Positions 276 through 19,417 of a stretch of 19,417 nucleotides of DNA are shown here, in pieces. Within the stretch, counting starts at the first letter, position 1. Each line of letters begins with the position of its first letter. This DNA is from Gammaproteobacteria bacterium (GTDB lineage: Bacteria > Pseudomonadota > Gammaproteobacteria > Thiohalomonadales > Thiohalomonadaceae). A program made the position numbers and the translations under genes. The stretch lies in the NCBI GenBank assembly GCA_003252455.1, contig QKED01000030.1:1-19417 (forward strand). Direction: 5' to 3'. The notes beneath the pieces were generated by a model, which was given only the letters and a program-made list of their open reading frames with translations, was not told where the DNA came from and did not search any database.

Positions 276-325
276 GTAGAGAGAATGTGGTGTTTCAAGA
301 CATGAACCCGGCTCGCATTTTATAT

Positions 326-457: not shown

Positions 458-529
458 AAGCAAACCTTCGATAAAGCCACTAAAGTCGGCGGGTGTACAA
501 GGAAGCGATACAGAGTATTTCGCGTCCTC

Positions 530-664: not shown

Positions 665-747
665 ACGTTGCGTGTGTGCGCTTCCGGTCGGTGGCTAACC
701 ATTTCCGGGTGGGGGTAAGTACCCACTGGGCTCCTTCTCACACTTTC

Positions 748-791
748 GTCGTCACGCCTGTGACGACTTACGAGTGACCAGGCATGCCTGG
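748..791 (-). terminator. Hairpin and 14-bp palindrome downstream of cap3 (candidate operon terminator or operator)
   Basis: gtcgtcac-gcct-gtgacgac (748-767) is an 8-bp stem. ccaggcatgcctgg (778-791) is a perfect palindrome 30 bp after the cap3 stop. No clear U-tract follows, so the terminator assignment is tentative. Confidence 0.3.
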
Positions 792-820
792 CACACCAAG
801 ACATGATCCTAATGAGCGCG

Positions 821-1339
821 TTAAGTGCTGTCGGTAAGAATCCAAGGGTGTACGAACTCGCTAGAGACGCTCCACATACCGAGTCCAGTTACGTCTTCTG
901 CTCGTCCAACTATCAGTATCAACAACGCGCTTATGTTGAGTTGTGAGTTGGCGATAAGGCGACGCATCGCATCGTCATCTAATGTCGAAATTCTAGGGTG
1001 GTCCTCGGCATGGGTGTGCCATTCACCGAGGTACAGCAACCCCTTCATATGGCAATCATCAATGGTTGATTGTGCCGCAGTTGAGTTTGAACGATATCGG
1101 TACCTAGACTGTTCATCACCAGAGTAGGGACCTGACGCCACGGTAACACAGATCTGTCCAGTACTGATGGTCCCAAACAACTGGCCGCCAGCCTCTTTCG
1201 AGCGGAGTGTCGATTGGCGATAACGACCCACGTATTGCACCACCGTCTCAGCTATTAACAGTGATTGATGGATGTCGTGGAGATGACCGATTACCGAACG
1301 GCTCGATCCTGCTTTTACACACGTAGTGGTCATGGCCAC
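821..1339 (-). CDS. cap3: JAB/JAMM (MPN+) metallopeptidase, CBASS Cap3-like
   Basis: The JAMM motif H-x-H-x7-S-x2-D is present as HTHAEDHPRISTLD, with an upstream Glu (KEAGG). The gene is 172 aa and overlaps the upstream E1/E2 gene by 10 nt. It is the last gene of the capV-cdn-cap2-cap3 operon. Confidence 0.85.
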   Translation of the reverse strand: MAMTTTCVKAGSSRSVIGHLHDIHQSLLIAETVVQYVGRYRQSTLRSKEAGGQLFGTISTGQICVTVASGPYSGDEQSRYRYRSNSTAAQSTIDDCHMKGLLYLGEWHTHAEDHPRISTLDDDAMRRLIANSQLNISALLILIVGRAEDVTGLGMWSVSSEFVHPWILTDST

Positions 1340-4076: not shown

Positions 4077-4088
4077 TTAATTTCCCTG

Positions 4089-5195
4089 TTATTGGTTGGT
4101 GTCTCTTGGTTTCGCATCGGCTAGGGTAGCTCGGAAGGCTTCCATTTCCACTGTACGGGAAGCCCAGGCAAAATCGACATCAGATATGGCCTGACGTGCA
4201 AGTGCGTTTAGCACCTTCGGTCGCGCGTCATCCATGTTATCAAGGTATTCTCGAAGTTCGTTAGATGGGCACTGCGCGGGCAATCGGTACGCGAAGCTTC
4301 CATCGCCCCGAATCTCGGCCAATTTGGCTGCAAGGTAATCGTAGCCCACGGCTTGCGCGTTCAAACTGGCCGCTATAGCCCGAAGCCCAAACTTCCACCC
4401 GCGTGCGCCTCGGTGTAAAGAACGGTTGCTTACCTCTTCGCCGCCTTGTGACGGTAACGTGCCAAGCATGAAAAGGTGAATCGGGCGATGTTCCCCGCGA
4501 TCATTCAGGATCTCGATCGCTTCAATCATTCCGATGAGTCCAGGGTTGTTGGCCCAGAGCCCTCCATCCACGTATGTTGCCGTTGCGCCCTTGCCACCGT
4601 GCTCGTCCAACCTTGCCATCGACCGGAGGATCGGCGCTGCGCTGGTGGCCATGCAAATATCGACTAGCGTCCTCCCATTGTCTCGTCCGTTTAGTCGTTT
4701 GAGATGTTGTGTCTTGAAAACCACCGCAGCATGACGATTGATGTCCAGTGTTGGCACAGCCAGTGCTATACCTCGCGAATCGTACATAGACTTGACGGTC
4801 ATATTGCCAAAAATAGTAGCGAGGGTACTCCGCAATGCATCATCGCCTTTGCGCAAACCGACGCCAACTCCCTTCAGGAACAGGCCGATAAATGGAAGTG
4901 ATCGCGCCCATTGCATAGGAAAAATCTTGGGGCCAGCCTTGGCATACAGAGATTGGATGTCTGGTAGTGGCACACCGGCAACTAATCCACACGCTACGAT
5001 CCCACCAGTACTGGTACCTACGATTAGGTCGAAAGCTGTGCCAATGTCTAGGGACTGTTGACGGTTTAGACTATCTTCAATGCGGTCTTCAAAGGTAGCG
5101 AGATAAGCCGACTGATATGCACCACGCATACCGCCACCGTCCAGACACAGTACTCGAAATGGTTTCGTTTCTGTCACGTCGCTCACTACTATCAA
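4089..5195 (-). CDS. capV: Patatin-like phospholipase, CBASS effector CapV-like
   Basis: The oxyanion motif LDGGGMRG and the nucleophile motif GTSTGG (GxSxG) are both present. The gene is the first in the operon and starts at a TTG. 368 aa. Confidence 0.88.
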   Translation of the reverse strand: MIVVSDVTETKPFRVLCLDGGGMRGAYQSAYLATFEDRIEDSLNRQQSLDIGTAFDLIVGTSTGGIVACGLVAGVPLPDIQSLYAKAGPKIFPMQWARSLPFIGLFLKGVGVGLRKGDDALRSTLATIFGNMTVKSMYDSRGIALAVPTLDINRHAAVVFKTQHLKRLNGRDNGRTLVDICMATSAAPILRSMARLDEHGGKGATATYVDGGLWANNPGLIGMIEAIEILNDRGEHRPIHLFMLGTLPSQGGEEVSNRSLHRGARGWKFGLRAIAASLNAQAVGYDYLAAKLAEIRGDGSFAYRLPAQCPSNELREYLDNMDDARPKVLNALARQAISDVDFAWASRTVEMEAFRATLADAKPRDTNQ

Positions 5196-5295
5196 CTCAA
5201 AAGCCGCGAATACTCTGTGTTATGAGGAATCGGTCTAGAAACACCTGAATCCGGCAGGAAGACCTGGCAGTTCGCCATCTAGCATCCACTCCACC
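5196..5295 (-). promoter_or_regulatory. Intergenic region upstream of capV (putative CBASS promoter) and island/chromosome junction
   Basis: A 100-bp non-coding gap immediately 5' of capV. GC composition changes across it. I could not assign -35/-10 boxes with confidence. Confidence 0.3.
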
Positions 5296-5676
5296 CTACT
5301 TAGCCAACGCCACAGGCAGATACGGACTCTCCGGATTCACACTCAACTGCTGTGTAGCCGGATGCAACACCAAGTCCATCATCTCCATCGGCACCGCCCC
5401 CATGAGCGGCTCATCACCGAACACCAACGCCGAGAGGTCACAATAACGGTCACCAAAGTGGACACGCAGCGGTCCCACCATCGGTACCCGCTTGCGCGTA
5501 CCGTCGGCGAGAATCACCTCCCGCGTACTGAACTCCTCGGTGTCGTACCCGAGTTGCAAGGCCATGTGCTGTGGGATCACCATAAACACAGCCCCTGAGT
5601 CGACCAGCGACCGGACCTCGATTCGCCGACCGATAAAGCTGTTTTCCAGTGTTAAATTCGCGTAGGTCAAACCCAT
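5296..5676 (-). CDS. Retropepsin-like (clan AA) aspartic protease, paralog B
   Basis: 126 aa. The active-site motif is LVDSGAVFMV. The C-terminal stretch ALVFGDEPLMGAVPMEMMDLVL has the retropepsin character. About 45% identical to the adjacent paralog. Confidence 0.75.
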   Translation of the reverse strand: MGLTYANLTLENSFIGRRIEVRSLVDSGAVFMVIPQHMALQLGYDTEEFSTREVILADGTRKRVPMVGPLRVHFGDRYCDLSALVFGDEPLMGAVPMEMMDLVLHPATQQLSVNPESPYLPVALAK

Positions 5677-5716
5677 CAGTGGCCCCCTCTACAAAAGCCG
5701 AGCAACTACAACCTAA

Positions 5717-6097
5717 TCACTTCACCCGAGCATGCGGAATATTCGGACTCGCCGGGTCCACCCCCAGCTCCCTCCGCGCGGGATTGACCACCAGATCCAT
5801 ATCCTCCATCTGCACAGCCCCGAGCAGCACCTCATCACCCAGCACCAGAGCCCCGACATAACAGAAGCGGTCACCAAAGCGGACCTTGATCGGCCCGACA
5901 TAGGGCACCAGCAAACTCCGGCCATCGGCAACGCTCACTTCACGCTCAGATTCCGTCTCAAGTTGAAGCTGATTGGCGATGTGCTGCGGGATGCAGAGCA
6001 TCAATGCCCCCGTATCCGCTGGTGCCTGGGTACGGATAGGTGCCAGCGCTGCATCACGCGGGTTGCTCAGCTCGATGTTGGCGAACACATGACCCAT
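5717..6097 (-). CDS. Retropepsin-like (clan AA) aspartic protease, paralog A
   Basis: 126 aa. The active-site motif is ADTGALMLCIPQH. ALVLGDEVLLGAVQMEDMDLVV parallels the downstream paralog. Confidence 0.75.
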   Translation of the reverse strand: MGHVFANIELSNPRDAALAPIRTQAPADTGALMLCIPQHIANQLQLETESEREVSVADGRSLLVPYVGPIKVRFGDRFCYVGALVLGDEVLLGAVQMEDMDLVVNPARRELGVDPASPNIPHARVK

Positions 6098-6163
6098 GTC
6101 CGAATCCTCAGGTATACGCGTAGAGCCGAGTATAGGGTCGTGAAGGTGCCGATGTCATGCCCG

Positions 6164-9100
6164 TCACTCCTTCTTCCCCCGAATCCCCTTCAACCCCTGC
6201 TCAATCTGCTGCAACCGCTTCATCACCGCATCGCTCACAGAGTTCTTCTCGTGCAGCGAGCGCAGCATCGGCTTGAGCGAGAGGTCGACCACCTCGATGA
6301 GCTGTTCAACCAGGGTCTGCATGGCGGGCAGGGGTTCGTTGACCAGGTTGATCTCCGGCTGTTTGGCGCTCAGTGCCTCCAGCGTCTTGTTCAGCCGCTG
6401 CAGGTAGAGCACGGTGGCGCGGGCGTTGTAGCTCTCTTTCTCCAGGCGGGCGTCGTGGCCTTCGCTCATGCTGCGGGCGGCCTGATTGAGGGCCTCCAAC
6501 TGCTGCCCAAGCCCGGCGAGCTGGCCGGCGACGCGGGTGGCGGGGTCGTTTTCGTCGCCGATGACGGAGGCACGGCGGCGGTACTCCTGGGTGATGGCGT
6601 GCCAGCGCGCGGCCTGCTCGGGGGTCTGTTTGCCGCGCAGGGCGGCGAGCTTGAGCAGGTTCTCTTCGGCGCCGGTGGTGAGGGTCTGCGCCTCGCCGAT
6701 GTAGTGGTCGTCGATCAGCGCCTCCAGTTCGGCGTCGTTCATCACCGCCACCACCTTCTCGGCCATCTTGTTCATGTTGCGGTAGCTGCCCTGGAGCTTG
6801 AACGGCGGCTCGGTGCGGTAGGCGTCGTGCTGGCTGGCGGATTCGATGTAGGCGAGGTTGACCTTGAGCACGGTCTGCTGGATGCGCAGCAGTTTCTTCA
6901 GAACGTCGACGATCTCGGCCAGCTCGGCGGCGGAGTAGCCGTGGCCCAGTTCGTTGCTGGAGATCTCCTCGCCCTGGGCCATGCGGATTAGTTTGTAGAG
7001 GTCCTGCATGTCGCGGGTGGCGAGCGGGGCGAGGGTGGCGTTGGAGGTGAGGGCGTTCTCGATGTAGGAGAGGGCGAAGGCCTGCTCCTTGCCGCCGAGG
7101 ACGTCGCCGAGGTTGTAGATGTCGGCGCGGTTGGCGAGCATGTCGGGGATCTTGAACGCCTCGCCGGACTCGGTGTAGGGGTTGCCCGCCATGATGATGC
7201 AGAAGCGCTTGCCGCGCAGGTCGTAGCTGCGGCTGCGGCCGCGCCAGACCCCCTCGACACGGCGGGTGCCATCGGCCAGGGAGATGAACTTCTGCAGGAA
7301 CTCGGGGTTGGTGTGCTGGATGTCGTCGAGGTAGAGCATGACGTTGTTGCCCATCTCCAGCGCCAGGTTGAGCTTCTCCAGCTCCTGTTTGGCGGCGGCG
7401 CCGGGGGCCTCGACGGGGTCGAGGCCGGTGACGGCGTGGCCGATGGTGGGGCAGTTGATCTTCATGAAGATGAGCCCGAGGCGGTGGGCGGTGTACTCCA
7501 TGAGGGTGGTCTTGCCGTAGCCGGGCGGGGAGATGAGCAGCAGCATGCCCATCAGGTCGGTGCGCTTGGCGTCGCCCAGCGCCCCCATCTGCTTGGCCAG
7601 GTTGTCGCCGATGAGTGGCAGGTAGACCTCGTTGATCAGCTGGTTGCGCACGAAGCTGGTGAGTGGGCGCGGTTTGAACTCCTCAAGGCGTAGCGCCTCG
7701 CGCGCCTGCTCGGCCACCTCGCGGCGGCTCTGGCGGTAGGCGCGGAAGGCGGGCACGCGGGTGTGGCCGAACTGCTCCAGCCGCTGCAGGAACTCGTCCA
7801 GCTCCAGCACCAGGGTGCGCTCGACGATACGCGGGTGCTGGCCGAGCAGGCCGCCCACCTCGGCGCGGGTGAGGGTGGCGCTGGCCTGGTGGTCGAGGCG
7901 CCCCTCGGTGAGCAGCAGGGCGGTGGCGGCGGGGATGCGGCGGATGGCGTCCTCGCCCGCCCCGGTATGGCGCAGATACTGCTCCAGCCAGGCGCTGACC
8001 AGTTGGACCTGGTCGGCGAGGGACTCCTCCAGCGCCTCCAGGTCCTCCTCGAACTCGGCGCGGTGTCCGGCCTGCTCCAACTCGCGGCGCAGCCCGGCGA
8101 CCAGCTCCTCGGCCTCGTGGCTGGTGGTGAGGCGCAGCGGGTGCTGGCGCAGCTCGGCGATGAGATAGGCCCCGGCGAGGCGCTGCTCGCCCGCGTCGAA
8201 GTCGAGGCGCATCTCGCCACAGAAGGCGGCGAGCAGGCCGACCGCCTCCTCCACCAGCGCCAGCTCGGCGCGGTGGGCACCGAAGCGTCCGGCCAGTTGG
8301 CCGAGGCTGCGGGCACGGCGTTGCAGCCCCTGCGGCCCCTGCTCGGCCCAGTAGAGCCAGGCGAGGGCGCGCGGACGTGGGCCGAAGCGCAGCAGCCCGG
8401 CCCCGGCGTGCAGGTCGAGCAGGGCGGCGAGGATGGCGGCGGCGTCGACGTCGTGCACGCCGCGCTCGTAGCCCTCTTCGTAGCGCTCGGCGGCGGCCCT
8501 ACGCACCCGTTCGCGCAGGGCGTCGGGGTCCGCCGCCAGGGTGTGCAGCTCGGCCAGGGTGTCGCTGGCCTCGGCGGCGAACAGCAGGCTGGCGGCCAGG
8601 TACTCGGCGCGGTAGACGCTGGCGTCTTCCGATACGCGCTCCTGCTCCCAGTAGTCGCGGAAGGCGGCGAGGCGTTCGTCCTCCACCGGCTCGAAGAAAT
8701 CGGTGCCGGTGAGGTGCAGACTCATCCTGCCGTCGACCGGCAGCAGGGTGAGGTCGAGCGGGCTGGTGGTGACACTGAAGCGGTGCTTGCCCAGGCGGAT
8801 GACGTTGCCGCCCTCCTCGAAGATCTCGCTGCGGTCGCGCAGGGTGCGGCTCGACTGGTCGCGGGCCGACTTGAGGCGCGCCTCCACATCGTCGGCACGT
8901 ACGCTGTCGCCCAGTTCGCGCAGCCGTTCGACCAGCTCGCGCAGCTTGAGGATCATCGGATCGGCGGCAAAGTAGGCGTTGATGGCGTCCTGGTCGGAGA
9001 AGCCCTCGACCCTGCGCTCGACCCCCTGCAGGATGCGGTCGGCGGCGGCGGCCATGTTCTGCGCGCGGCGCTGGCGCTCCTCGTTGAGCTGCTGTTTGCG

Positions 9101-11371
9101 CGCCTCGAAGCTCTCGTAGACCTCCTCGCGCTTGGCGGTGAGCTGGGTCAGGTAGTCGTCGAACTCGCTGAAGCGCCCCTCCAGCTCTTCGAGTTGCAGC
9201 AGCAGGCGGGCGAGCTGTTCGTCGCACGCCTCCGGGGTGTCGGCCTGGGCCAGGGCGGCGGTGACCGACTGGCCGTAGAGCTTGAACTCGGCGGCGAACT
9301 CGGCCACCGACTCGTGGGAGCGCAGCCCCTTGCGCTTGAGCTTGAGTTCGGCGCGGGTACGGTTGAGGCGGGCGAAGACCTCGCCGACCCGCTCCAGGAT
9401 GGTGGTGCGCTGGGTGGCGTCCTCCACCTTGAGGCCGCCGAGCACCTCGTTGAGCAGCTCCAGCCCCTCCGCCTGCTGCTCCAGCGCCGCCTCGATGGGG
9501 TCGAGTTCGACCACCTTTTCCACCGCCTCGATGGCCGCGGCCTGGGCCTCCAGCTGCTGGTGGTAGGCGTCCAGCGCGTCGTCGCGCAGCAAAAAGTCGA
9601 CGCTCTGGCGCGAGAGGCGCTCGAAGGCCTCGACCACCTCCTGCTCCAGTTCGTCGAGACGTTTCAGGTCGATGCGGCGCAGGTCGCGCAGGGTGATGAG
9701 CTGGCCGCGCTGACCGCGCAGGTCGGCCAGGGCGGTGATGAAGGGGTCGATGCTGTGCCACGACTCCGGGCGTGTCTTGCGCAGCAGCTCCTGCTGGGCG
9801 AGGGCGGCCTGCTCCAGGGCGGTTGCGGCCTGCTTGCGCTGGGCGGCGACCTTCTCGAACTCTCCGAGCACCAGCTCGGCAGTGGCGCGCACCGCCTTGA
9901 CCGCCGGCAGCAGCGGGCCGGTCTCGGCCTGGTCGAGCCAGTGGTAGTGGTCGGCCATGCGCGTGCAGGCGGCGATGAGCGCCTCGTAGACGCCAACGGT
10001 GGGGCTGGCGCTGGTGACCATGCGGCGGATGGAGAGGGCGTCGGAGATGCCGCGCACCAGGTCGGCGTTGCCGATGCGCGCCAGCGGCGAGCCGTCGGTG
10101 GGGCGGGCGGCGGCGTGCTCGTCGCTCATGTAGGGCGTTTGCCAGATCTGCATCGGGTGGACGCGGGTCGGCTCATCTGAGTCGTAGCGGAAGACCACCA
10201 TGCGCCCGTCGTCGAACAGCGAGTAGCCGTGGCAGACGATGGGGTTGGCCAGCTGTTTGCGGATGAGGTTGTAGGAGAGCAGCTCCTGGCGCCCCTCCAT
10301 GTAGTGGTAGAAGAGGTAGAGCACATCCTCGCCGTTGGGCGAGCGGATGGTGCGCTTGTATTCGAGGTCGGTGATGTCGCCGTCGAACTGCTTGTGCTCG
10401 CCGCTCACCAGGTAGTAGCCGCCGGGGAAGATCAGGCCGTGCCCCTCGGGCAGCTGCACGCAGGCCTGGCCGATGGCGTCGATGCGCACCACCTGCTCGG
10501 TGCGGCTGTTAAACACCAGGTGGCGCCACACCTCCTCGCGATAGGGGCGGATGCGCAGCAGGATCAGCTCGCCGAGGTCGGCGTACTCGATCTGCGCGTC
10601 GGCCAGGGACTGATTGGCATCCTCCACCGGCTCTCGGTAGATGCCGAGGCCCGACTCTGTGTTGTTCTCCACCTTGATGGTGAGGTCGCCGCCCACGGTC
10701 TCGACGAACAGCCGCTCCTGGATCGAGACGTGGGGAAACTTGCCCGCCACATGATTATCGCGCGTGGTGGCGGTCCACTCGAAGTCGTGGGCGCGCGGGA
10801 AGGTGTGGTCGCGCTCGCCACGATTGTCGATGTAACTGACCTTGCCGTCGCGGTCGATGCCCCAACGGAAGACCTTGAAGTCGGCGCGGCGGCTGCCGGT
10901 CTGGAACACCGCGAGCAGCTTGCCGTCGAGCACACGCAGGGCGGTGAGGTAGGCCTCCTTGTAGTAGGCGTAGAGTTCGCGGAACTCCTTAACGAACTGC
11001 GGGTGGTCGAGGAAGGAGTCTTTCAGCGGCACCGACTCCACCTCGTAGCCGCCCTCGGCCTCCACCAGGCGGTTGAGGGAGAAGACGTCGCTCACCCGCG
11101 TCTCGGTCTTGAGGCCGATGAAGACGTTGTAGCCGAACAGCAGCAGCCCGCCCACCTGCACCATGTCGCGTGGCACGCAGTTGTTCTCGGTGCGCAGGCG
11201 CAGGGCACCGGTGACCGCCAGCTCCGTACCGCCGAAGAGTTTGAGGCGCTTTTCGTTGAGGCCGCTGGCGAGCTTGGCCAGCTCGCCGCCCTGGGTGGTG
11301 AGGCGCTGGCTCAGGAGTTCGTAGGCGCCGTCCTGGTCGAGGGTGGGCTCGGTGTTGTTGGCGTCGGTCAT
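6164..11371 (-). CDS. Giant (1735 aa) coiled-coil protein with one MoxR/AAA_5-type AAA+ ATPase module
   Basis: An uninterrupted 5.2-kb ORF at host GC. Walker A is LISPPGYGKTTL and Walker B is VMLYLDDIQ. The downstream segment RFCIIMAGNPYTESGEAFKIPDMLANRADIY follows the MoxR/dynein-like pattern ATQNP...LP.A.LDRF. Residues about 450-1200 are E/A/L/R/Q-rich and heptad-like, so predicted coiled coil. The N-terminal 440 aa is aromatic and beta-rich. Confidence 0.85.
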   Translation of the reverse strand: MTDANNTEPTLDQDGAYELLSQRLTTQGGELAKLASGLNEKRLKLFGGTELAVTGALRLRTENNCVPRDMVQVGGLLLFGYNVFIGLKTETRVSDVFSLNRLVEAEGGYEVESVPLKDSFLDHPQFVKEFRELYAYYKEAYLTALRVLDGKLLAVFQTGSRRADFKVFRWGIDRDGKVSYIDNRGERDHTFPRAHDFEWTATTRDNHVAGKFPHVSIQERLFVETVGGDLTIKVENNTESGLGIYREPVEDANQSLADAQIEYADLGELILLRIRPYREEVWRHLVFNSRTEQVVRIDAIGQACVQLPEGHGLIFPGGYYLVSGEHKQFDGDITDLEYKRTIRSPNGEDVLYLFYHYMEGRQELLSYNLIRKQLANPIVCHGYSLFDDGRMVVFRYDSDEPTRVHPMQIWQTPYMSDEHAAARPTDGSPLARIGNADLVRGISDALSIRRMVTSASPTVGVYEALIAACTRMADHYHWLDQAETGPLLPAVKAVRATAELVLGEFEKVAAQRKQAATALEQAALAQQELLRKTRPESWHSIDPFITALADLRGQRGQLITLRDLRRIDLKRLDELEQEVVEAFERLSRQSVDFLLRDDALDAYHQQLEAQAAAIEAVEKVVELDPIEAALEQQAEGLELLNEVLGGLKVEDATQRTTILERVGEVFARLNRTRAELKLKRKGLRSHESVAEFAAEFKLYGQSVTAALAQADTPEACDEQLARLLLQLEELEGRFSEFDDYLTQLTAKREEVYESFEARKQQLNEERQRRAQNMAAAADRILQGVERRVEGFSDQDAINAYFAADPMILKLRELVERLRELGDSVRADDVEARLKSARDQSSRTLRDRSEIFEEGGNVIRLGKHRFSVTTSPLDLTLLPVDGRMSLHLTGTDFFEPVEDERLAAFRDYWEQERVSEDASVYRAEYLAASLLFAAEASDTLAELHTLAADPDALRERVRRAAAERYEEGYERGVHDVDAAAILAALLDLHAGAGLLRFGPRPRALAWLYWAEQGPQGLQRRARSLGQLAGRFGAHRAELALVEEAVGLLAAFCGEMRLDFDAGEQRLAGAYLIAELRQHPLRLTTSHEAEELVAGLRRELEQAGHRAEFEEDLEALEESLADQVQLVSAWLEQYLRHTGAGEDAIRRIPAATALLLTEGRLDHQASATLTRAEVGGLLGQHPRIVERTLVLELDEFLQRLEQFGHTRVPAFRAYRQSRREVAEQAREALRLEEFKPRPLTSFVRNQLINEVYLPLIGDNLAKQMGALGDAKRTDLMGMLLLISPPGYGKTTLMEYTAHRLGLIFMKINCPTIGHAVTGLDPVEAPGAAAKQELEKLNLALEMGNNVMLYLDDIQHTNPEFLQKFISLADGTRRVEGVWRGRSRSYDLRGKRFCIIMAGNPYTESGEAFKIPDMLANRADIYNLGDVLGGKEQAFALSYIENALTSNATLAPLATRDMQDLYKLIRMAQGEEISSNELGHGYSAAELAEIVDVLKKLLRIQQTVLKVNLAYIESASQHDAYRTEPPFKLQGSYRNMNKMAEKVVAVMNDAELEALIDDHYIGEAQTLTTGAEENLLKLAALRGKQTPEQAARWHAITQEYRRRASVIGDENDPATRVAGQLAGLGQQLEALNQAARSMSEGHDARLEKESYNARATVLYLQRLNKTLEALSAKQPEINLVNEPLPAMQTLVEQLIEVVDLSLKPMLRSLHEKNSVSDAVMKRLQQIEQGLKGIRGKKE

Positions 11372-11444
11372 GGATTAGGTCTCCGCGGAGGCCGAGTGGG
11401 TGAAAGAATTAGTGCCCGCGTAGGACGGGCGTGGAGGCTATGGC

Positions 11445-12029
11445 TCACTCGGTGGACTCCGTGTCAGGCAGCTCCAGCCACGCGCTGACCGCGAAGGGTT
11501 GCTCGGGGCAGAGCGGCAGAGTCAGCTCGTCGCCTTGGCCGAAGATCGCGGGACGGGGGTAACGCCCCTCCTCCAGCCGGTAGTGCTCGATGTAGTTCTC
11601 CAGCGGGTCGACGATGAGGTAGTCGGGTACACCGAAGCGCTCGTAGAGGGCGAGTTTGTCGCGCCTGTCGCGTGTGGCGCTGCCGGGGGAGAGGATCTCG
11701 ATGACGAGGTTGGGGGCACCCGCGTGATATTGGCCGTTGACCCTACGCGACGGGTCGCAGCTCACGAGTATGTCTGGTTGGACGACTGTAGATTCGTCGA
11801 ACACAACATCGACTGGCCCTATTAAAACCTCGCAGACTCGGCCCATCCGCCGGAGGGCGAGGTCGAGTGAGACGGCGATCCGTCCAACCCTCAATTGGTG
11901 ACGAATGGAGGGTGTCGGAAAAGAGGGCAAAATCACTCCATTGATCACCTCGCGCGGGGTCTCGTCCTTCCCGCTCAGATAGTCGGCGACGGTATACCGT
12001 CCTTCAGCTAGCGCTTCGTGTGCGCACAT
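11445..12029 (-). CDS. Uma2-family (DUF820) PD-(D/E)xK putative endonuclease, copy 2
   Basis: 194 aa. VQPDILV...APNLVIEILSPGSATRDRRDKLALYERFGVPDYLIVDP matches the Uma2 pattern (PD..., EhLSPS, ...Y...GV.EYWhVD). Confidence 0.8.
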   Translation of the reverse strand: MCAHEALAEGRYTVADYLSGKDETPREVINGVILPSFPTPSIRHQLRVGRIAVSLDLALRRMGRVCEVLIGPVDVVFDESTVVQPDILVSCDPSRRVNGQYHAGAPNLVIEILSPGSATRDRRDKLALYERFGVPDYLIVDPLENYIEHYRLEEGRYPRPAIFGQGDELTLPLCPEQPFAVSAWLELPDTESTE

Positions 12030-12089
12030 GGGTGGCCTCCTGAGCGTGACCCCGGATGGCGCTGCGCCTATCCGGGCTACGGTGCTGGC

Positions 12090-12680
12090 TCATATCTCGA
12101 TCCCGCTCTCTTCTCGCTGACCAAACCAGGCGTGGATGGCCTGGGGCAGACCGGGGAGCAGCGCCAGTTCGAGGGGCGTGTCCGGGGTGAAGAGCATCGG
12201 ACGCGGATAACGCCCTGCCACGAGCCGGTGGTGGGCGAGGTAGTTGTTGTGGGGGTCGACTACCAGATACTCCTGCACGCCGAACTGTTCGTAGAGCTCC
12301 AGCTTCACCCCCAGGTCGCGCACGGCGGTGGCGCTGCCGAGCACCTCGACCACCAGTTCCGGGGCCCCGTCGAAGTAGCGTCCGTCGCGCACCCTGTCGC
12401 GTCGGCGGTCGACGATCAGGTCGGGTTGCAGCAGGGTCGCCTCGCCGAGCACCAGCTCCACCGGTCCCAGGCCGATATAGGCCGTCGACAGCGGGCCGTC
12501 CGTGGCCAACTGCAGACCGAGAAAGTGCTGATAGATGGCGAACACCACCTCCTGATGACGCACCTCCTGCGTGAAGGGGAGAGTGGATTGCACCCCGTCG
12601 ACCAGCTCGCAGTCGGGCGAACCGGGCCAACCGAGGTAGTCGGCGACGGTGAAGCGCACCGCGTGGCTGAGGTCGGGCAT
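12090..12680 (-). CDS. Uma2-family (DUF820) PD-(D/E)xK putative endonuclease, copy 1
   Basis: 196 aa. LQPDLIV...APELVVEVLGSATAVRDLGVKLELYEQFGVQEYLVVDP. Paralogous to the downstream copy. Confidence 0.8.
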   Translation of the reverse strand: MPDLSHAVRFTVADYLGWPGSPDCELVDGVQSTLPFTQEVRHQEVVFAIYQHFLGLQLATDGPLSTAYIGLGPVELVLGEATLLQPDLIVDRRRDRVRDGRYFDGAPELVVEVLGSATAVRDLGVKLELYEQFGVQEYLVVDPHNNYLAHHRLVAGRYPRPMLFTPDTPLELALLPGLPQAIHAWFGQREESGIEI

Positions 12681-12759
12681 CGGTATCTCCCGTACGGAGT
12701 GCGATCCGGTCGGTGTTTATCGCGAAGTGGAGTACACGCCGAGGCGTGTACTCCAGGAG

Positions 12760-14745
12760 TTACTCCAGGCCGAGCTGCTTGGCCGCGGCGAGCAGGCGCT
12801 CCACCTTGGCCTTCTCATCCCCATCAGAGCCCTGCATCAGCTTGCCGAGGAAGGCGGTGAGGGTAAGGTTCTTCGCTGCCTCGGCGTCGATGGCCGGGTT
12901 GGTCAGCACGTCCTTCAGGTCCTGGCGCAGGCTGGCGTCGCCGTCGATGTAGTCACCGAAGATCTGCTTGGCGGTGTCGCCCTTCTCCAGGAAGCCGTCG
13001 AGCGACTTGGTGACCGAGACCGCCTTGACGAAGCGGTCGAAGAAGGCGCCGTCGCCGCCGATGATCTCGAACTTGGCGTTCTTCAGTGCGCTGCCGAGGA
13101 GCTGGGCCTGCTGCTCGGCCACGGCGCGCTGGGTGAGCAGCGCCTCGCCCTGCAGGGCGCGCACGTGTTCGAGCTTCATGCGGAACTGCTCGTAGGCCTC
13201 GCCACGGTCGCCCATCTGCTCCATCGCGGCGGTCTCGCTCTCCAGCACCTTGACCCGCGCCATGCCGATCTGCTCCTCGCCCTCGGCCTCGGCCTGCTTC
13301 TGCTCGCGCAGCACGCGCGCCTGGGCGGTGCCCTCTTTCTCCAGGGCGACGGCACTCGCCTCTTTCACGCGGGCGGCAGCAAGGCCATGCGCGGCGGCCT
13401 CGGCCTGGGTGCCCTCGGCGATGCGGATCTTGGCGGCGGCCAGCTTGTCGGCGGCGGCCAGCTCGGCCTCGGCCAGGGTGAGCTGCTCACGGGCCTTGTG
13501 CTTGGCGGCCTCCTCGGCGGCCTCGGCTGCCTTGATCGACTCGACCAGGTTCTGCTGCGCGGCGGCCTCGGCCTCGATCACCTTGGCCTTGCGGCTGCGG
13601 TCCGCCTCGGAGACGATGCGCAGCTCCTTGATGCGCTCCTCCTCCTCGGCCACGGTCTTGTCCACGGCGGTACGCTCGCGGATCACCTCGGCGATGGCCT
13701 TCTTCTCCTCCTCCAGCGCCTTCTCCTTGGCGATGCGCTGCAGCTCCACCTCGCGTTCGCGGGCGATCGCCTCCAGGGCGCGGGCGCGCTCGACCTTCTC
13801 CACCTCGATGGCCACGGCGCGGGCGCGGTTCTGCGCCGCCACCTCGGTCTCGCGCAGCTTGTTCTCCTCCATCACCGCGAGGGACTCGTCGGTCTTGATG
13901 CGCGCCTGCTCGGAGCGCAGGCGCTCCTCGCTGCGCACCTTCTCGGTCTCGGCCTCTTCGCGGGCGCGCAGGGATTCGATCTCGCGCTGCTGCTTCGCCT
14001 CGGCGTCCGCCTGCTGGCGTTCGAGCTCCAGGATCGCCTCACGCGCCTGCACATCCTTCTTCTTGATCTGCATCTCTTCGTCGCGGGCGATCTCGTTGGT
14101 CTGGATGTTCTGCGTGGCGGTGAGCTGGGTGATCTTGCGGATGCCCTGGGCGTCGAGGATGTTCTTCGGGTCGAGGCTGGAGAGGGGGGTCTGCTCCAGG
14201 TAGTCGATGGCGGCGTCTTCGAGCACGTAGCCGTTCAGGTCCTTGCCGATGAGGGCGATGATCTGGTCGCGGAAGCTGTCGCGCTCCTTGTACAGGTCCT
14301 CGAAGTCCATCTGCTTGCCGACGGTCTTCAGCGCCTCGGAGAACTTGGCGTTGAACAGCTCTTCGAGGGTCGACTGGTCGGAGGCGCGGGCGCAGCCGAT
14401 GGCCTGGGCCACCTTGAGCACGTCCTCCTGGGTCTTGTTCACACGCACGAAGAAGGAGACGCGGATGTCGGCGCGGATGTTGTCGGAGCAGATCAGCCCC
14501 TCCTTGCCGCGACGGTCGATCTCGATGGTCTTGAGCGAGATCTCCATCACCTCGGCCTTGTGGATCACCGGGTAGACGACCATGCCGGTGAAGGTGACCA
14601 CCGGCTCCTTGCGCATAGTGTTGACGATGAGCGCCTTACCTTGTTCCACCTTCTTGTGGAACATGAATACCAGCAGGGCGATACCGCCGACGATGAAGAC
14701 GAGGATGCCGAGCACGCTCAGGATCACATACCAGATGGAACTCAT
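12760..14745 (-). CDS. yqiK: Flotillin-family SPFH-domain protein (YqiK-like)
   Basis: 661 aa. An N-terminal TM helix is followed by an SPFH/band-7 domain (KALIVNTMRKEPVVTFTGMVVYPVIHKAEVMEISLKTIEI...). A long E/A/R/K-rich flotillin-type coiled coil follows. It sits immediately downstream of the YqiJ-like gene. Confidence 0.9.
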   Translation of the reverse strand: MSSIWYVILSVLGILVFIVGGIALLVFMFHKKVEQGKALIVNTMRKEPVVTFTGMVVYPVIHKAEVMEISLKTIEIDRRGKEGLICSDNIRADIRVSFFVRVNKTQEDVLKVAQAIGCARASDQSTLEELFNAKFSEALKTVGKQMDFEDLYKERDSFRDQIIALIGKDLNGYVLEDAAIDYLEQTPLSSLDPKNILDAQGIRKITQLTATQNIQTNEIARDEEMQIKKKDVQAREAILELERQQADAEAKQQREIESLRAREEAETEKVRSEERLRSEQARIKTDESLAVMEENKLRETEVAAQNRARAVAIEVEKVERARALEAIAREREVELQRIAKEKALEEEKKAIAEVIRERTAVDKTVAEEEERIKELRIVSEADRSRKAKVIEAEAAAQQNLVESIKAAEAAEEAAKHKAREQLTLAEAELAAADKLAAAKIRIAEGTQAEAAAHGLAAARVKEASAVALEKEGTAQARVLREQKQAEAEGEEQIGMARVKVLESETAAMEQMGDRGEAYEQFRMKLEHVRALQGEALLTQRAVAEQQAQLLGSALKNAKFEIIGGDGAFFDRFVKAVSVTKSLDGFLEKGDTAKQIFGDYIDGDASLRQDLKDVLTNPAIDAEAAKNLTLTAFLGKLMQGSDGDEKAKVERLLAAAKQLGLE

Positions 14746-14763
14746 TGCGGGTCTCCTTGAGTT

Positions 14764-15396
14764 TTAGGGTCCGTCGTAGGGGGCCACCGCATAAGTGTCG
14801 GCGGCGGAGTCGTAGTCGATGATGAGCAGGGGGTCGCCACGCTTGAGGCCGTTCTCCTCGATATGGCAGGTGACGCTGAGGATGAGGTCGTTACCGCCCT
14901 GTTCATAGCGCGCCTGTCCATGCGTCTGGCCGACGCTGCCGGAGGTGAGGGTACAGAGTTTACCCACCAGTGTCTGTTTGCTGTCGGCGCCGTGCACGGC
15001 GAAAAACGGGCGCAGTGGCACGACGGCACGCCCGGCCAGCGGCAGGGCGATGACGAAGGCGGCGATGCCGACCGCCAAACCGGCCATGCCGCCGAACGGG
15101 CCCGGCAGCCAGGGCAGCAGGTAGAGGTTGGCCAGCAGGCTGAGCAACCAGGCGATGAGCACGACAAAGCTGAAGATGATGGCGATGGGCACCCCGGTGA
15201 GGCCGAGGGCGGCCATCATCCCGGCGAGGGTGTCGCCACGCCACAGGGGGGCACCCTCCAGGTCGATGTCGGCCCCGAACAGGTCGATGTCGAAGAAGCC
15301 GAGGATGACGAAGAGCCAGTAGATCAGCACCAGCGCCAGCAGGGCCGAGTAGAGGCCGGTGGGGAGGGCAATCAGGGCGTGAAGAAAGGGCTCCAT
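14764..15396 (-). CDS. yqiJ: YqiJ/NfeD-like inner-membrane protein (flotillin partner)
   Basis: Multiple hydrophobic helices. The C-terminal soluble part (GKLCTLTSGSVGQTHGQARYEQGGNDLILSVTCHIEENGLKRGDPLLIIDYD) resembles the NfeD OB-fold. The ORF is open to 15489. I prefer the ATG at 15396 (MEPFLH...), which has a GGAG 6 nt upstream. Confidence 0.65.
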   Translation of the reverse strand: MEPFLHALIALPTGLYSALLALVLIYWLFVILGFFDIDLFGADIDLEGAPLWRGDTLAGMMAALGLTGVPIAIIFSFVVLIAWLLSLLANLYLLPWLPGPFGGMAGLAVGIAAFVIALPLAGRAVVPLRPFFAVHGADSKQTLVGKLCTLTSGSVGQTHGQARYEQGGNDLILSVTCHIEENGLKRGDPLLIIDYDSAADTYAVAPYDGP

Positions 15397-15501
15397 GGGC
15401 GTCTCCATGCTTTGTGCGGGGCCGTTAGCGCCGGGCGCTGACCGGCCATCAGGCCACAGCCCCGGGAGGGCGTCAAGCACGCCCCGCACAAAAGGCGTGC
15501 A

Positions 15502-16437
15502 CTAGCCTCGTTGGGCGAAGGCAAGGGAGAAGGCGCGTGGCCCGACGTTCACCGCGGCCGTGGTGCTCATCAGGCTGAGCAGCAGGTCGACCCCGCGCGC
15601 CTGGGCGGCGTTGACGAAGTCGATATAGTGACTATTGGCGCGGATCTCCTCCAGGTCACCCCCATAGCTCATGGCCACCAGTGGGGTGACGAGCCCCTGG
15701 TCGATCGCCTCCAGGGTGCGGGCAAAGAGGCGCTGCAGGGCGGCATCGAAGCCGGCGGCCTTGAACGCGGGTTCGGTGACACCGCGATAGCACTGCACCA
15801 CCGGCTTGACGTTGAGCAGGTTGCCCACCTTGTAGCTGAACCAACCGACGCTGTTGTCGCCCTTCTCACGGGCACGCGCGTGCAGGTAATAGAGGTCACG
15901 CGGTACGACATAGGCGTAGACCTGGTCGGCCAGGGCGGCGAGGCGCGGCTCCAGCCGCTCCAGCTCCAGCCCCTCGTCGCGCAGCAGGCGTACCGCCTCG
16001 TGGGCGATGATCGCCTGGCCGGTAAACATGGTGGTGCTGTTGAACACGCGCAGGCGAAACTGGCTGGAGCCGGTCACGTCGCGGTGCAGCGCCTTGAGCT
16101 TGGGCAGCTTGATCAGCGCCGCTTCGCGGACGTTGTCGTAGATCTTGCTGCGCTCGGCGTTGATGGTGATCACCTGGGTGCCGTCGTAGTGGTGCAGCAG
16201 CTCCTCTTCGAGGATGGTGCTCATCTCGTCCACCGTCAGCGGGCTGGTCTGCACCAGGCCATCCTTGTGGTTGCCATAGTAGGCGTAGAAATCGAGGGTG
16301 GTCTTGGGGTCGCGAAAATCGCGGAAGATCTGCCCGTCGATCAACACCGTGATAGGTAGTACCTTGACGTTGTTCGCGACGATAAACGGGTGTGGCAGGT
16401 CGCAGGCCGAATCCACGGCGATACAGTAGTTGGGCAT
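15502..16437 (-). CDS. degV: DegV-family (EDD-fold, fatty-acid-binding) protein
   Basis: The N-terminal motif YCIAVDSACDLP matches the DegV signature (IAIVTDStaDLP). The ORF is open to a GTG at 16464. The preferred ATG at 16437 has an AAGGAC Shine-Dalgarno 6 nt upstream. Confidence 0.8.
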   Translation of the reverse strand: MPNYCIAVDSACDLPHPFIVANNVKVLPITVLIDGQIFRDFRDPKTTLDFYAYYGNHKDGLVQTSPLTVDEMSTILEEELLHHYDGTQVITINAERSKIYDNVREAALIKLPKLKALHRDVTGSSQFRLRVFNSTTMFTGQAIIAHEAVRLLRDEGLELERLEPRLAALADQVYAYVVPRDLYYLHARAREKGDNSVGWFSYKVGNLLNVKPVVQCYRGVTEPAFKAAGFDAALQRLFARTLEAIDQGLVTPLVAMSYGGDLEEIRANSHYIDFVNAAQARGVDLLLSLMSTTAAVNVGPRAFSLAFAQRG

Positions 16438-16501
16438 GCTCAGGTCCTTAGGCCTTATCGGCACAGACCGGGCGGACAGCGCGACCCGCTGAGCGCCTCG
16501 G

Positions 16502-16534
16502 GCGATATGTTACGAAGTATGTGATAAATATCGC
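16502..16534. promoter_or_regulatory. Inverted repeat GCGATAT-N19-ATATCGC upstream of degV (possible operator)
   Basis: 7-bp arms (7 of 8 if extended), lying 65-97 bp upstream of the degV ATG in the 128-bp dctM-degV gap. Confidence 0.25.
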
Positions 16535-16592
16535 TATTGAACCGAAACCGGTGGGGAAATGATACAGGGACTTTACGTACCGCAATCTGCCG

Positions 16593-17975
16593 CTAGGGGG
16601 TGTAGAGCTGCCGGGGTAGCCAGGTGGCCAACTCGGGCCAGAGCGCCAGGGCGCCGAGGGCCAGCAGCTGGATGAGGATGAAGGGGACCACGCCGCGATA
16701 GATCTGCAGCGTGGTCACCTCGGCCGGGGCCACGCCGCGCAGGTAGAAGAGCGCGAAGCCGAAGGGGGGGGTGAGGAACGAGGTCTGCAGGTTGATGGCG
16801 ATCATCACCCCGAGCCACACCGGGTCGAGCCCCATGGCCAGCAGGATCGGCGCGACGATGGGCACCACCACGAAGGTGATCTCGATAAAGTCGAGGATGA
16901 AGCCGAGCAGGAACATCACCCCCATCACCAACAGCATGGCACCAAAGGCGCCACCGGGTAGGTCGCTGAGCAGTCCCTCCACCAGCAGGTCGCCACCAAA
17001 GCCACGAAACACCAGGGAGAAGAGCGAGGCTCCGATGAAGATGAGGAACACCATGCTGGTGACGCGGGTGGTGGTGCGCATCACCTCCTGCAACACCGCC
17101 AGGGTCAGTTCACGGCGCCAGAGGGCGAGCAACATGGCGCCGCTGGCCCCGACCGATGCGGCCTCGGTCGGGGTGGCGAGCCCGGCGAGGATGGAGCCGA
17201 GCACGGCGAGGATCAGTAGCAGTGGCGGGGCGAGCACGGTGAGCACGTCGCGCCATAGGCTGCCCCGCCCCGCGCGCAGCTCGACCGGTTGTGGCGGCAT
17301 CGCCTGGGGCTTGAACCAGGCCACCAGGAGCAGCCAGGCGATATAGAGCAGTACCAACAACAGGCCGGGGAAGAGTGCACCAGCGAACAGGTCGCCCACC
17401 GAGAGGGGCTCGGGGGAGTAGTTGCCCATCTTCAGCTGCGCCTGCTGGTAGGCGGCAGAGAGTACGTCACCGAGCAGGATGAGGATGATGGAGGGGGGGA
17501 TGATCTGCCCCAGGGTACCGGAGGCGCAGATGGTGCCGCAGGCCAGGGCCGGGTCGTATCCGCGCTTGATCATGGTCGGCAACGAGAGCAGCCCCATGGT
17601 CACCACGGTGGCGCCGACGATGCCGGTACTCGCCGCCAACAGCATCCCCACCACCACCACCGAAATGCCGAGCCCACCACGCAGGCCACCGAACAGCGCC
17701 GCCATGGTGTCGAGCAGTGACTCGGCGACACGTGAGCGCTCCAACATCACCCCCATGAAGATGAACAGGGGCACGGCGAGCAGGGTCTCATTGGTCATCA
17801 CACCGAACAGGCGATTCGGGAGTGCGTGGAGCAGGGCGCCGTCGAACACCCCACCCGCCTCGCCAGCGAGGGCGAAGAGCAACGCGGTCCCCCCCAGGGA
17901 GAGGGCCACGGGGTAGCCGGCCAGGAGCACCAGGCCGACCATCAGGAACATCAGCAGGGGGAGCCACTCGCTCAT
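16593..17975 (-). CDS. dctM: TRAP transporter large permease subunit (DctM family)
   Basis: 460 aa polytopic membrane protein with typical DctM sequence (LLFALAGEAGGVFDGALLHALPNRLFGVMTNETLLAVPLFIFMGVMLE). Separated from dctQ by 1 nt. Confidence 0.9.
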   Translation of the reverse strand: MSEWLPLLMFLMVGLVLLAGYPVALSLGGTALLFALAGEAGGVFDGALLHALPNRLFGVMTNETLLAVPLFIFMGVMLERSRVAESLLDTMAALFGGLRGGLGISVVVVGMLLAASTGIVGATVVTMGLLSLPTMIKRGYDPALACGTICASGTLGQIIPPSIILILLGDVLSAAYQQAQLKMGNYSPEPLSVGDLFAGALFPGLLLVLLYIAWLLLVAWFKPQAMPPQPVELRAGRGSLWRDVLTVLAPPLLLILAVLGSILAGLATPTEAASVGASGAMLLALWRRELTLAVLQEVMRTTTRVTSMVFLIFIGASLFSLVFRGFGGDLLVEGLLSDLPGGAFGAMLLVMGVMFLLGFILDFIEITFVVVPIVAPILLAMGLDPVWLGVMIAINLQTSFLTPPFGFALFYLRGVAPAEVTTLQIYRGVVPFILIQLLALGALALWPELATWLPRQLYTP

Positions 17976-17976
17976 C

Positions 17977-18522
17977 TCACAGCTCCCGGTCCATCTCGTG
18001 CAGGGGGGCCGACTCCGGGTGGTTGCGCAGCACCTGCCACGCCCGGAGCGCCTGACTCACCCCTTGAGTGATCAACAGCACCCCCATCAACGGGATGACC
18101 CCCTTGAGCAGCCAGACCAGGGGCAGTCCACCGGTCTCGCGCGACCCCTCCAGCAGGGCCCAACTATTGGCCACATAGCCCCAGCTCACCCAGATGATGA
18201 AGAGTGCGAAGGGGATGAGCAGCAACAGGGTCCCGAGCAGGTCGACCAGGGCCTGCCCCTTGGGGCCGAGGCGGTTGTAGATGAGGTCCACGCGCACATG
18301 GCCATCGTGGCGCAGGGTATAGCCCATCGCCAGCATGAAGACGGCTGCATGCATGTAGATCACAGTTTCTTGCAGGGCGATGGAGCCGCTGTTGAATAAA
18401 TAGCGCAGCGCCACGATTAGCAGGGTAACGAGAACCATTCCTAGTGTTAACCAGGCGATGGTACGCCCGATCCACTCACTCACTGCATCCAGTCTGGAGG
18501 TCAACTTATCTAAGGAAAACAT
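17977..18522 (-). CDS. dctQ: TRAP transporter small permease subunit (DctQ family)
   Basis: 181 aa with 4 predicted TM helices (AWLTLGMVLVTLLIVALRYL...). Immediately upstream of dctM on the same strand. Confidence 0.85.
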   Translation of the reverse strand: MFSLDKLTSRLDAVSEWIGRTIAWLTLGMVLVTLLIVALRYLFNSGSIALQETVIYMHAAVFMLAMGYTLRHDGHVRVDLIYNRLGPKGQALVDLLGTLLLLIPFALFIIWVSWGYVANSWALLEGSRETGGLPLVWLLKGVIPLMGVLLITQGVSQALRAWQVLRNHPESAPLHEMDREL

Positions 18523-18764
18523 TATGCTAGCCGCCGACAGTCGTCTATTTTCATGATAACGGAGCAGCCTAGGCGACGACCCGCGAGCGGGCTAGAATCC
18601 TCTATTATCGGACCTAACACGTGACATATCTCACTGAAATTTTCCCAACTTTTCATCATTCGCTAGATAGCGTACGCAATCTATAGTAAATTACCTACAA
18701 AAATGAACTAAGCTTGAGCTGACCCAGACCCAAGCAACTCATCCTCCGAACCGAGCAACAGAGC

Positions 18765-19253
18765 ATGGCCAGATACAAAAACATTACCGAACCCGACCAA
18801 TGGGGTTACCAGGTACGCGTCGTGATCAACGGCACCGAACACAGCCGTTATTTCTCCCACCGTAAACACGGTGGTCGGCGTAAATCCCTCCGCGCAGCCG
18901 TCGAGTGGCGAGACGAGAAGCTCGCGCAGGCCGCCAAGGAGCGTACCCGTTTCCGTGGCCCCCAATCCAACAACCACAGCACCCGCGTGGCGGGCGTCTC
19001 GCGCGTGATCAAGAACGACAAGCGCAAGGGCACGCAGTACGTGGTCTATCAGGTCTTTTGGATGGAACGCGGCAAGCCGCGCAACAAGAGCTTCTCCGCC
19101 GGTCCGCTGAAAGAGGTGACCGCCGAGATGGAGGAGCACACCCTGAAGACGGCCATCCAGTTCCGCAGCGAGTACGAGCAGTCTGTGCTCGGGGGCAACA
19201 GCTTCCGCCCCAACCGCTACCGCAACTGGCGCAACGAGCGGATGTACGACTGA
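18765..19253 (+). CDS. Small basic protein with two AP2-like DNA-binding repeats (putative regulator)
   Basis: 162 aa. WGYQVRVVINGTEHSRYFSHRKHGGRRKSLRAAVEWRDEKLAQA loosely fits the AP2 consensus (GY.GV...G.W.A.I...G....LG.F.t.eeAa.A.D.a), and a second similar segment follows. Transcribed divergently from dctQ out of an AT-rich gap. The Shine-Dalgarno is weak. Confidence 0.4.
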   Translation: MARYKNITEPDQWGYQVRVVINGTEHSRYFSHRKHGGRRKSLRAAVEWRDEKLAQAAKERTRFRGPQSNNHSTRVAGVSRVIKNDKRKGTQYVVYQVFWMERGKPRNKSFSAGPLKEVTAEMEEHTLKTAIQFRSEYEQSVLGGNSFRPNRYRNWRNERMYD

Positions 19254-19290
19254 GGCACCAGCCTCTCCTCGACTTCGTGCACCGCAGATT

Positions 19291-19340
19291 CGACCGGGCC
19301 CCGCCCGGTCGAGGGCGCCCTGCCCTCCTCAATATTTATC
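19291..19340 (+). terminator. Tandem GC-rich hairpins followed by an AT-rich stretch (candidate intrinsic terminator)
   Basis: cgaccggg-ccccg-cccggtcg (8-bp stem) at 19291-19311 and gagggc-gccct-gccctc (6-bp stem) at 19311-19327. ctcaatatttatctg follows, about 40 nt after the stop. Confidence 0.35.
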
Positions 19341-19417
19341 TGTCTACCGCTCCCCGCGCCCCTTCGGCGTATCTCCCCTCGCCCTCTCTACCAGCTGAAG
19401 ATGCGCCACTGATTGAG

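Follow-up and report, generated by a model that had tools for sequence, protein, structure and literature searches.

Why should two small nuclease-like genes stand in tandem between the gene of a flotillin and that of a giant ATPase? The question is raised by a contig of a gammaproteobacterium of the Thiohalomonadaceae (GenBank assembly GCA_003252455.1, contig QKED01000030.1), of which positions 1 to 19,417 were analysed (the window, 19,417 nucleotides). The two genes, here termed UmaA and UmaB, belong to the Uma2 (COG4636/DUF820) family of putative PD-(D/E)xK nucleases. An initial annotation, made from the sequence alone, had read their position as a sign that they are nucleic-acid-targeting effectors or regulators under the control of the surrounding machinery. 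We consider it very likely that they instead form a lineage-specific tandem cassette, which was inserted into the spacer between the flotillin and the DUF3686 ATPase, was then duplicated locally and is autonomous of both.

The flotillin/ATPase junction in orthologous loci

Both Uma2 genes are intact where the initial annotation had placed them (11445-12680) and match Pfam PF05685. They are indeed embedded between a flotillin gene upstream (Pfam PF01145) and an ATPase gene downstream on the same strand, the latter with DUF3686, DUF7902 and AAA domains (PF12458 with an E-value of 8e-210, PF25472 and AAA_5/AAA). The order of transcription is membrane protein, flotillin, UmaB, UmaA and ATPase, and all substantial genes of the region lie on the minus strand (Table 1). 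The gaps are short, with 79 bp between flotillin and UmaB, 60 bp between UmaB and UmaA, and 73 bp between UmaA and the ATPase. The same arrangement is found in a Logan contig from an independent assembly (L001, 2538 bp), which matches the window at 100% identity over 11116-13653 and runs through both junctions; an assembly chimera peculiar to the present contig is thereby excluded.

If the pair belonged to the machinery around it, it should be found with that machinery elsewhere. Loci were fetched via relatives of the N-terminal 480 residues of the ATPase, 80 from species-representative genomes and 54 from metagenomes (134 together), with flanks of up to 10 kb and up to 6 kb, respectively. The genome loci come from Actinomycetota, Acidobacteriota, Myxococcota and Gammaproteobacteria, with ATPases 56-65% identical to the one in the window; for the metagenome loci the identity is 50-72% (50-68% for full-length matches). 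Of the 118 informative loci, 100 have flotillin as the immediate upstream neighbour of the ATPase orthologue. Flotillin lies within 500 bp of the ATPase start in 58 of 73 informative genome loci (median gap 99.5 bp) and in 42 of 45 informative metagenome loci (median gap 66.5 bp). In the window flotillin and ATPase are 1388 bp apart, and the two Uma2 genes take up this space. A Uma2 hidden Markov model (HMM), built from a 41-sequence alignment (A1) and searched at E<=1 on six-frame translations, recovered every positive control and had no match in any of the 134 loci, neither in the 80 from genomes nor in the 54 from metagenomes. A tblastn search at E<=1e-5 likewise found no Uma2 gene near DUF3686 orthologues.

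What is conserved at these loci is a unit of three genes. By tblastn, most genome loci have a homologue of the 241-aa membrane protein as the next gene upstream of flotillin, and we limit the unit to three genes because no other flanking family is common to more than about 20 loci; a conserved fourth gene was not found among the flanking ORF (open reading frame) clusters. The membrane protein has no Pfam, NCBIfam or PADLOC match. It sits where NfeD/YqiJ-type partners stand upstream of flotillin genes and may, from this position, be called NfeD-like. Co-occurrence of Uma2 genes with the NfeD-like/flotillin/DUF3686 module is not conserved, and the Uma2 genes are not an integral component of it. 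Their association with the module is neither ancestral nor widespread. Orthologous clusters lacking Uma2, which the initial annotation had itself named beforehand as the outcome fatal to its proposal, are what all 134 loci turned out to be, and together with the unrelated contexts in which the nearest homologues are found (see below) they leave the step from position to control by the flotillin/ATPase machinery without support.

A minority of loci depart from the compact arrangement. No flotillin is present in the fetched upstream flank of 14 loci (13 genome loci within 10 kb and one metagenome locus within 6 kb). About 5 kb separate flotillin and ATPase in two Sorangium loci (L075 and L080, about 4350-10000), and this insert contains one ORF with weak matches to a copper monooxygenase domain. 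In two metagenome loci (L116 and L135, 5431-5970) an unrelated 179-aa CxxC-rich, zinc-ribbon-like ORF occupies a gap of 692 bp; the junction thus accepts other passengers too.

Origin, fold and active site of the pair

The nearest homologues point in the same direction as the orthologous loci. We looked up six of them, namely five of the six closest to UmaA and the one closest to UmaB outside the window (P0122). Their identities range from 38 to 51% overall, and UmaA's nearest relatives are 44-51% identical to it. All six are solo genes in unrelated neighbourhoods, three of them on short contigs without a second Uma2 gene. The closest UmaA homologue (P0002, in locus L082) lies inside an exopolysaccharide/exosortase locus among HEPN-MNT and DUF4160/DUF2442 pairs. 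Another of the six is found between djlA and type II secretion (T2SS) genes, and a third next to a TIR-STAND-WD40 gene in the vicinity of HigB and ParE toxins. The exopolysaccharide/exosortase locus (9851-13860 of L082) is itself broken by four consecutive two-gene modules (DUF4160/DUF2442, two Polbeta/HepT and NTP_transf_2/NTase_sub_bind) and is another large operon into which small mobile modules have spread.

Codon composition also sets the pair apart. The GC content at third codon positions (GC3) is 0.754 for UmaA and 0.848 for UmaB, compared with 0.943 for flotillin and 0.936 for the ATPase, a difference that we estimate at several standard errors for genes of about 195 codons. The pair is compositionally foreign to the genes that flank it. 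As to how two copies arose, of the 138 homologues collected it is UmaA that gives UmaB its best BLASTP match (127 bits, 42% identity), narrowly ahead of other members of the same subclade. This suggests, as the simplest account, that one gene was duplicated in tandem on the spot and that UmaB then diverged faster. In the scenario that we favour, a Uma2 gene would have landed in the normally ~70-100 bp spacer of the conserved three-gene module, in this lineage only, and would have duplicated there. The cassette would be autonomous in function and parasitic in expression, being read through from the host operon. Insertion into a conserved operon is typical of the Uma2 family, and in this sense the finding is an ordinary one.

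The initial annotation had recognised the two proteins as diverged paralogues with a PD-(D/E)xK fold, and here it was right. At a Pfam cut-off of 27 bits, UmaA scores 107.1 bits (E 9e-31) and UmaB 75.1 bits (E 6e-21) against PF05685 (Uma2, 'putative restriction endonuclease'), and the two proteins are 42% identical over 178 residues (E 6e-40). Sequence searches of the PDB match UmaA to 9y1l (E 3e-24) and 6okh (E 2e-18), and UmaB to 9y1l (E 1.2e-16). AlphaFold2 models both with high confidence, with predicted local distance difference test (pLDDT) values of 91.4 for UmaA and 91.6 for UmaB and a predicted TM-score (pTM) of 0.88. In Foldseek searches the UmaA model reaches target-normalised TM-scores of 0.89-0.90 to 9y1l and 6okh, and the UmaB model 0.88-0.89 to 6okh and 9y1l, each with a root-mean-square deviation of about 2 A. 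The significant PDB neighbours of both models are Uma2-type structures only, namely 9y1l, 6okh, 3ot2, 1wdj and 3ijm, the last three at E<1e-3. All five entries are uncharacterised structural-genomics deposits.

The active site of the family has been described as a variant of the PD-(D/E)xK site, 'PD-EXX-K', in which the lysine has moved from a beta-strand to the next helix and an additional histidine is conserved; the corresponding residues of all3650 are H43, D83, E111 and K127 (Feder & Bujnicki 2005, PMC551604). The invariant H, PD, E and K columns of UmaA and UmaB correspond to these four positions. In UmaA the set consists of H44, D86 (in PD), E111 (in EIL) and K125, in addition to E27, D74 and D121; in UmaB it consists of H42, D87, E112 (in EVL) and K126, in addition to E25, E75 and D122. 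Twelve columns are invariant in alignment A1 (G31, H44, Q45, T81, Q84, P85, D86, P106, E111, L113, K125 and Y129 in UmaA numbering), and UmaB has all of them, as invariance was computed over every row. In a second alignment centred on UmaB (A2), H42, P86, D87, G105, P107, E112, K126 and V135 are invariant. Since the H, P, D, E and K columns are invariant in both alignments, both copies carry the full H-PD-EXX-K set, and sequence and models together show that they keep the family fold. The motifs PD(I/L) and E(I/V)L(S/G), which had been named as the catalytic core, are present in both proteins, but the catalytic lysine lies outside the second motif, in the helix that follows it. The loss of acidic or lysine residues that an alignment to Uma2 structures might have exposed was not seen, and fold and motifs are intact. 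We reject a pseudogene or an inactive fold on the residue conservation together with the model confidence.

Expression signals and gene neighbourhood

How the pair is expressed bears on how closely it is tied to its hosts. A sigma-70 scan found no promoter of the pair's own. With the same strand, gaps of 60-79 bp, separate ribosome-binding sites (RBSs), no promoter-like site and no canonical terminator, co-transcription by read-through is likely, and the pair is probably transcribed from the promoter of the flotillin operon. Terminator-like sites in our scan numbered three, compared with 2.3 expected by chance. The hairpin between UmaA and the ATPase has six pairs and a poor T-tail, and the spacer around it folds with a z-score of only -0.6. 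Passive transcriptional coupling to the flotillin/ATPase operon is possible, given the shared orientation and the short gaps. No Rfam family matches anywhere in the window.

The spacer between flotillin and UmaB is structured. Directly after the flotillin stop codon two arms of 13 nt each (12728-12740 and 12743-12755) are 100% complementary and form a stem-loop without a U-tail. The spacer RNA folds at -34.5 kcal/mol (z -5.2), and none of 200 shuffled sequences was as stable. This stem-loop is repeated neither elsewhere in the window nor in 90 loci, and was not scored as a terminator. It could stabilise the mRNA or act in attenuation, and it might stand at an old operon junction or at the boundary of the insertion.

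Table 1. Coordinates of the Uma2 pair, its host operon and other features of the window (RBS, ribosome-binding site; CBASS, cyclic-oligonucleotide-based antiphage signalling system)
Feature	Position	Strand	Description
UmaA	11445-12029	minus	Uma2/COG4636-family putative PD-(D/E)xK nuclease, 194 aa, ATG start, AGGAGG RBS upstream
UmaB	12090-12680	minus	more diverged Uma2 paralogue, 196 aa, ATG start
Membrane protein (host operon gene 1)	14764-15489	minus	241 aa, conserved
Flotillin (host operon gene 2)	12760-14745	minus	SPFH/Band_7, 661 aa, Pfam PF01145
Giant ATPase (host operon gene 3)	6164-11371	minus	DUF3686 + DUF7902 + AAA, 1735 aa
Flotillin-UmaB spacer	12681-12759	minus	stem-loop, then GGGAG RBS for UmaB
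UmaB-UmaA spacer	12030-12089	minus	modest hairpin (fold z -2.0), AGGAGG RBS 7 nt before UmaA ATG
UmaA-ATPase spacer	11372-11444	minus	weak terminator-like hairpin 11414-11430, GGAG before ATPase ATG
JAB/Cap3	821-1339	minus	CBASS
E1-E2/Cap2	1330-3039	minus	CBASS
CD-NTase	3036-4076	minus	CBASS
Patatin phospholipase effector	4089-5195	minus	CBASS
Clan-AA aspartic protease pair	5296-5676 and 5717-6097	minus	retropepsin-like, TIGR03698, 126 aa each
162-aa ORF	18765-19253	plus	sub-threshold AP2-domain match, 21 bits vs 33-bit cut-off

The wider neighbourhood contains a complete type II CBASS (821-5195, minus strand) about 6 kb from the Uma2 pair, with PADLOC E-values that reach 2e-142 and 6e-170. 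Its GC3 is only 0.49-0.61, where flotillin, ATPase and TRAP genes have 0.86-0.94, so that it looks recently acquired. Between the ATPase and the CBASS lie two clan-AA protease paralogues that are 49% identical and have a GC3 of 0.68-0.72; by tblastn this pair is present in none of the 134 ATPase loci. A low-GC3 CBASS and a second foreign tandem pair close by are consistent with a variable region in which such cargo accumulates. At the other end of the window the 162-aa ORF is the only sizeable one on the plus strand and is a possible boundary marker of a mobile region, as AP2 domains occur in DNA-binding proteins of phages or integrative elements. We also considered the Uma2 pair as an additional CBASS effector and rejected this, since the CBASS is complete with its own patatin effector and two protease genes and the 5.2-kb ATPase gene lie in between. 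The Uma2 proteins are single-domain proteins, without contiguity to the CBASS and without a cyclic-nucleotide sensor domain.

The conserved trio of membrane protein, flotillin and ATPase (6164-15489) is uncharacterised and spans at least four phyla. Our literature search found no paper on DUF3686, nor on a flotillin with a DNA repair ATPase. This trio may be more interesting than the Uma2 pair that it hosts.

Role of the pair and comparison with known systems

What, then, could the two proteins do? From the conserved residues we would predict Mg2+-dependent phosphodiesterases that act on nucleic acid. They may well be dimers, either homodimers or an A/B heterodimer, a tentative suggestion that we make because the Uma2 crystal entries contain two chains. 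The HMMs of PDC-S03, a phage-defence candidate of PADLOC, match UmaA with an E-value of 2.8e-34 and UmaB with 4.5e-19; our literature search found neither a published validation of PDC-S03 nor a functional study that links Uma2 with defence. The pair could thus be an autonomous selfish or defence-type nuclease, similar to a solo toxin and independent of flotillin and ATPase. Of the conceivable roles, which are selfish maintenance, toxin-like growth control and anti-phage defence, we prefer one of a defence or addiction type that does not depend on flotillin. The pair does not have the make-up of a type II toxin-antitoxin (TA) system: the two Uma2 ORFs are the only ones between flotillin and ATPase, and neither matches an antitoxin family in Pfam.

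Several points weigh against the autonomous cassette. We found neither a transposase nor an integrase at the insertion, and a repeat search over 11200-12900 returned only short matches at chance level, with no target-site duplication, no flanking repeat and no terminal inverted repeats. Identity to the ATPase of the window reaches only 65% among the genome orthologues and 68% among the metagenome ones, so that none of the 134 loci comes from a sister lineage with an empty or filled site and the insertion is not datable. UmaA is closer to several solo homologues (44-51%) than to UmaB (42%), and two independent insertions in place of a duplication are possible. The literature search found no experimental activity for any Uma2 protein, and the known structures are all structural-genomics deposits; nuclease, toxin and defence roles are for this reason proposed here by inference. 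Finally, the tight same-strand packing, which probably couples expression to the flotillin operon, leaves room for a secondary co-option.

The divergence of UmaB leads to the first of the other readings. UmaB is, by sequence, the more derived copy: it has Gly115 where more than 90% of its relatives have Ser, and in the pairwise alignment, judged by eye, two cysteines that are near-invariant in the family (C66 and C91 of UmaA) are missing from it, as is the SPAP-like motif. Only 18 relatives are found in the database for UmaB at E<=1e-5, compared with 424 for UmaA. It might be that only UmaA is an active nuclease, acting as a toxin, and that UmaB, without catalysis of its own or as an inhibitor, partners it as the subunit of a heterodimer or in an antitoxin-like manner, so that the two would form an addiction or defence cassette that stabilises the locus. 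The two chains of the Uma2 crystal entries would suit such an arrangement, and so would the reports of Uma2 cassettes of paralogous genes discussed together with TA systems (PMC2701414) and of a TA-like stabilisation proposed for the hox operon (PMC4963859). However, UmaB keeps the four core catalytic residues and a confidently predicted canonical fold, and the nearest relatives are solo genes. We therefore hold such an asymmetric division of labour to be unlikely.

The proposal of the initial annotation, in which the pair serves the flotillin and the giant ATPase, for example as the output nuclease of a membrane-stress or defence sensor, would gain from the packing on one strand, from the lack of a predicted promoter or canonical terminator between the genes, and from the defence-rich region with its CBASS. 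It has to be set against the absence of Uma2 from every orthologous locus, including the 100 in which flotillin and ATPase are directly adjacent, against nearest Uma2 homologues that never adjoin flotillin or DUF3686, and against the foreign GC3 of the pair. Moreover, none of the defence models of PADLOC matches flotillin or the upstream membrane protein, and for the ATPase there is just a weak match to LmuB in the coiled-coil region (E 2.6e-06). Control by the flotillin/ATPase machinery thus appears very improbable. We give similarly little credence to a co-option confined to this lineage, in which a co-transcribed A/B heterodimeric nuclease would have become the output of the module, or an addiction cassette that stabilises the operon and the adjacent defence island. 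If true, a co-opted output of the module would mean nucleic-acid cleavage triggered by membrane perturbation, a defence of the abortive-infection type. That the two genes are merely decaying passengers, neutral remnants or non-catalytic nucleic-acid binders riding on operon transcription, is barely credible: the arrangement is confined to one lineage, UmaB is divergent and no function was found in the literature for any family member, but both ORFs are intact and full-length with good RBSs, and both proteins retain all 12 invariant columns and pLDDT values above 91.

The autonomous cassette agrees well with what is known of the family. Uma2 is most expanded in cyanobacteria, as the initial annotation had stated, with 382 of 435 members (PMC551604). 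The same study found that insertion of COG4636 genes 'seems virtually random', that their sole recurrent neighbour is another family member produced by tandem duplication, and that they spread horizontally, and it proposed them to be 'selfish genetic elements' (PMC551604). Makarova et al. regard COG4636 as a 'likely solo toxin', mostly found in cassettes of paralogous genes, with 114 COG4636-COG4636 pairs (PMC2701414). In gamma-proteobacteria the context of the family is non-conserved and linked to mobile elements (PMC3424549). The present locus is hence one more Uma2/COG4636 cassette in an unrelated operon, a behaviour described since 2005 and of little significance in itself. Its modest value is that of a clean example from outside the cyanobacteria, for which some 100 orthologous loci show a well-defined 'empty site', and it could serve as a test case for insertion without recognisable hallmarks of mobile elements. 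Any biochemical result on the intact pair would be new, despite five crystal structures and the PADLOC candidate label for the family.

Close parallels exist for the lodging of such genes in foreign operons. The DUF820 gene sll1222 lies inside the hoxEFUYH hydrogenase operon of Synechocystis 6803 and 6714 (PMC4963859), and a Uma2 gene lies between cmr4 and cmr5 in type III CRISPR clusters of Microcystis (PMC11855584). As in the window, these genes sit on the same strand within a functionally unrelated operon and are presumably co-transcribed with it. Here, two tandem copies are inserted and their host is the flotillin/DUF3686 module, and while the hox arrangement is common to two Synechocystis strains, the flotillin/ATPase insertion was seen in no second lineage. 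The PDC-S03 model, to which both proteins match strongly, describes a single-gene candidate, whereas two copies stand here in an operon that looks like housekeeping.

At the level of the proteins, UmaA and UmaB resemble the other family members, all3650 of Nostoc, TT1808 (1wdj), Ava_3926 (3ot2), 6okh and 9y1l, in size (about 190 aa), in fold and in the H-PD-EXX-K site, and they share with the family the erratic context, the horizontal spread and the occasional tandem duplicates. They differ in having a high-GC, non-cyanobacterial host, at whose identity the TRAP transporter genes and the gammaproteobacterial affinity of the best ATPase matches hint, and in belonging to a small subclade in which no other member exceeds 51% identity to them. 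More distant are the archaeal Holliday-junction resolvases Hjc/Hje and the classical PD-(D/E)xK nucleases, to which Foldseek gave no significant match with either model. These enzymes have the alpha/beta core and a spatially equivalent Asp/Glu/Lys triad in common with Uma2 (PMC551604), but in Uma2 the lysine comes from a different secondary-structure element and is accompanied by the additional conserved histidine.

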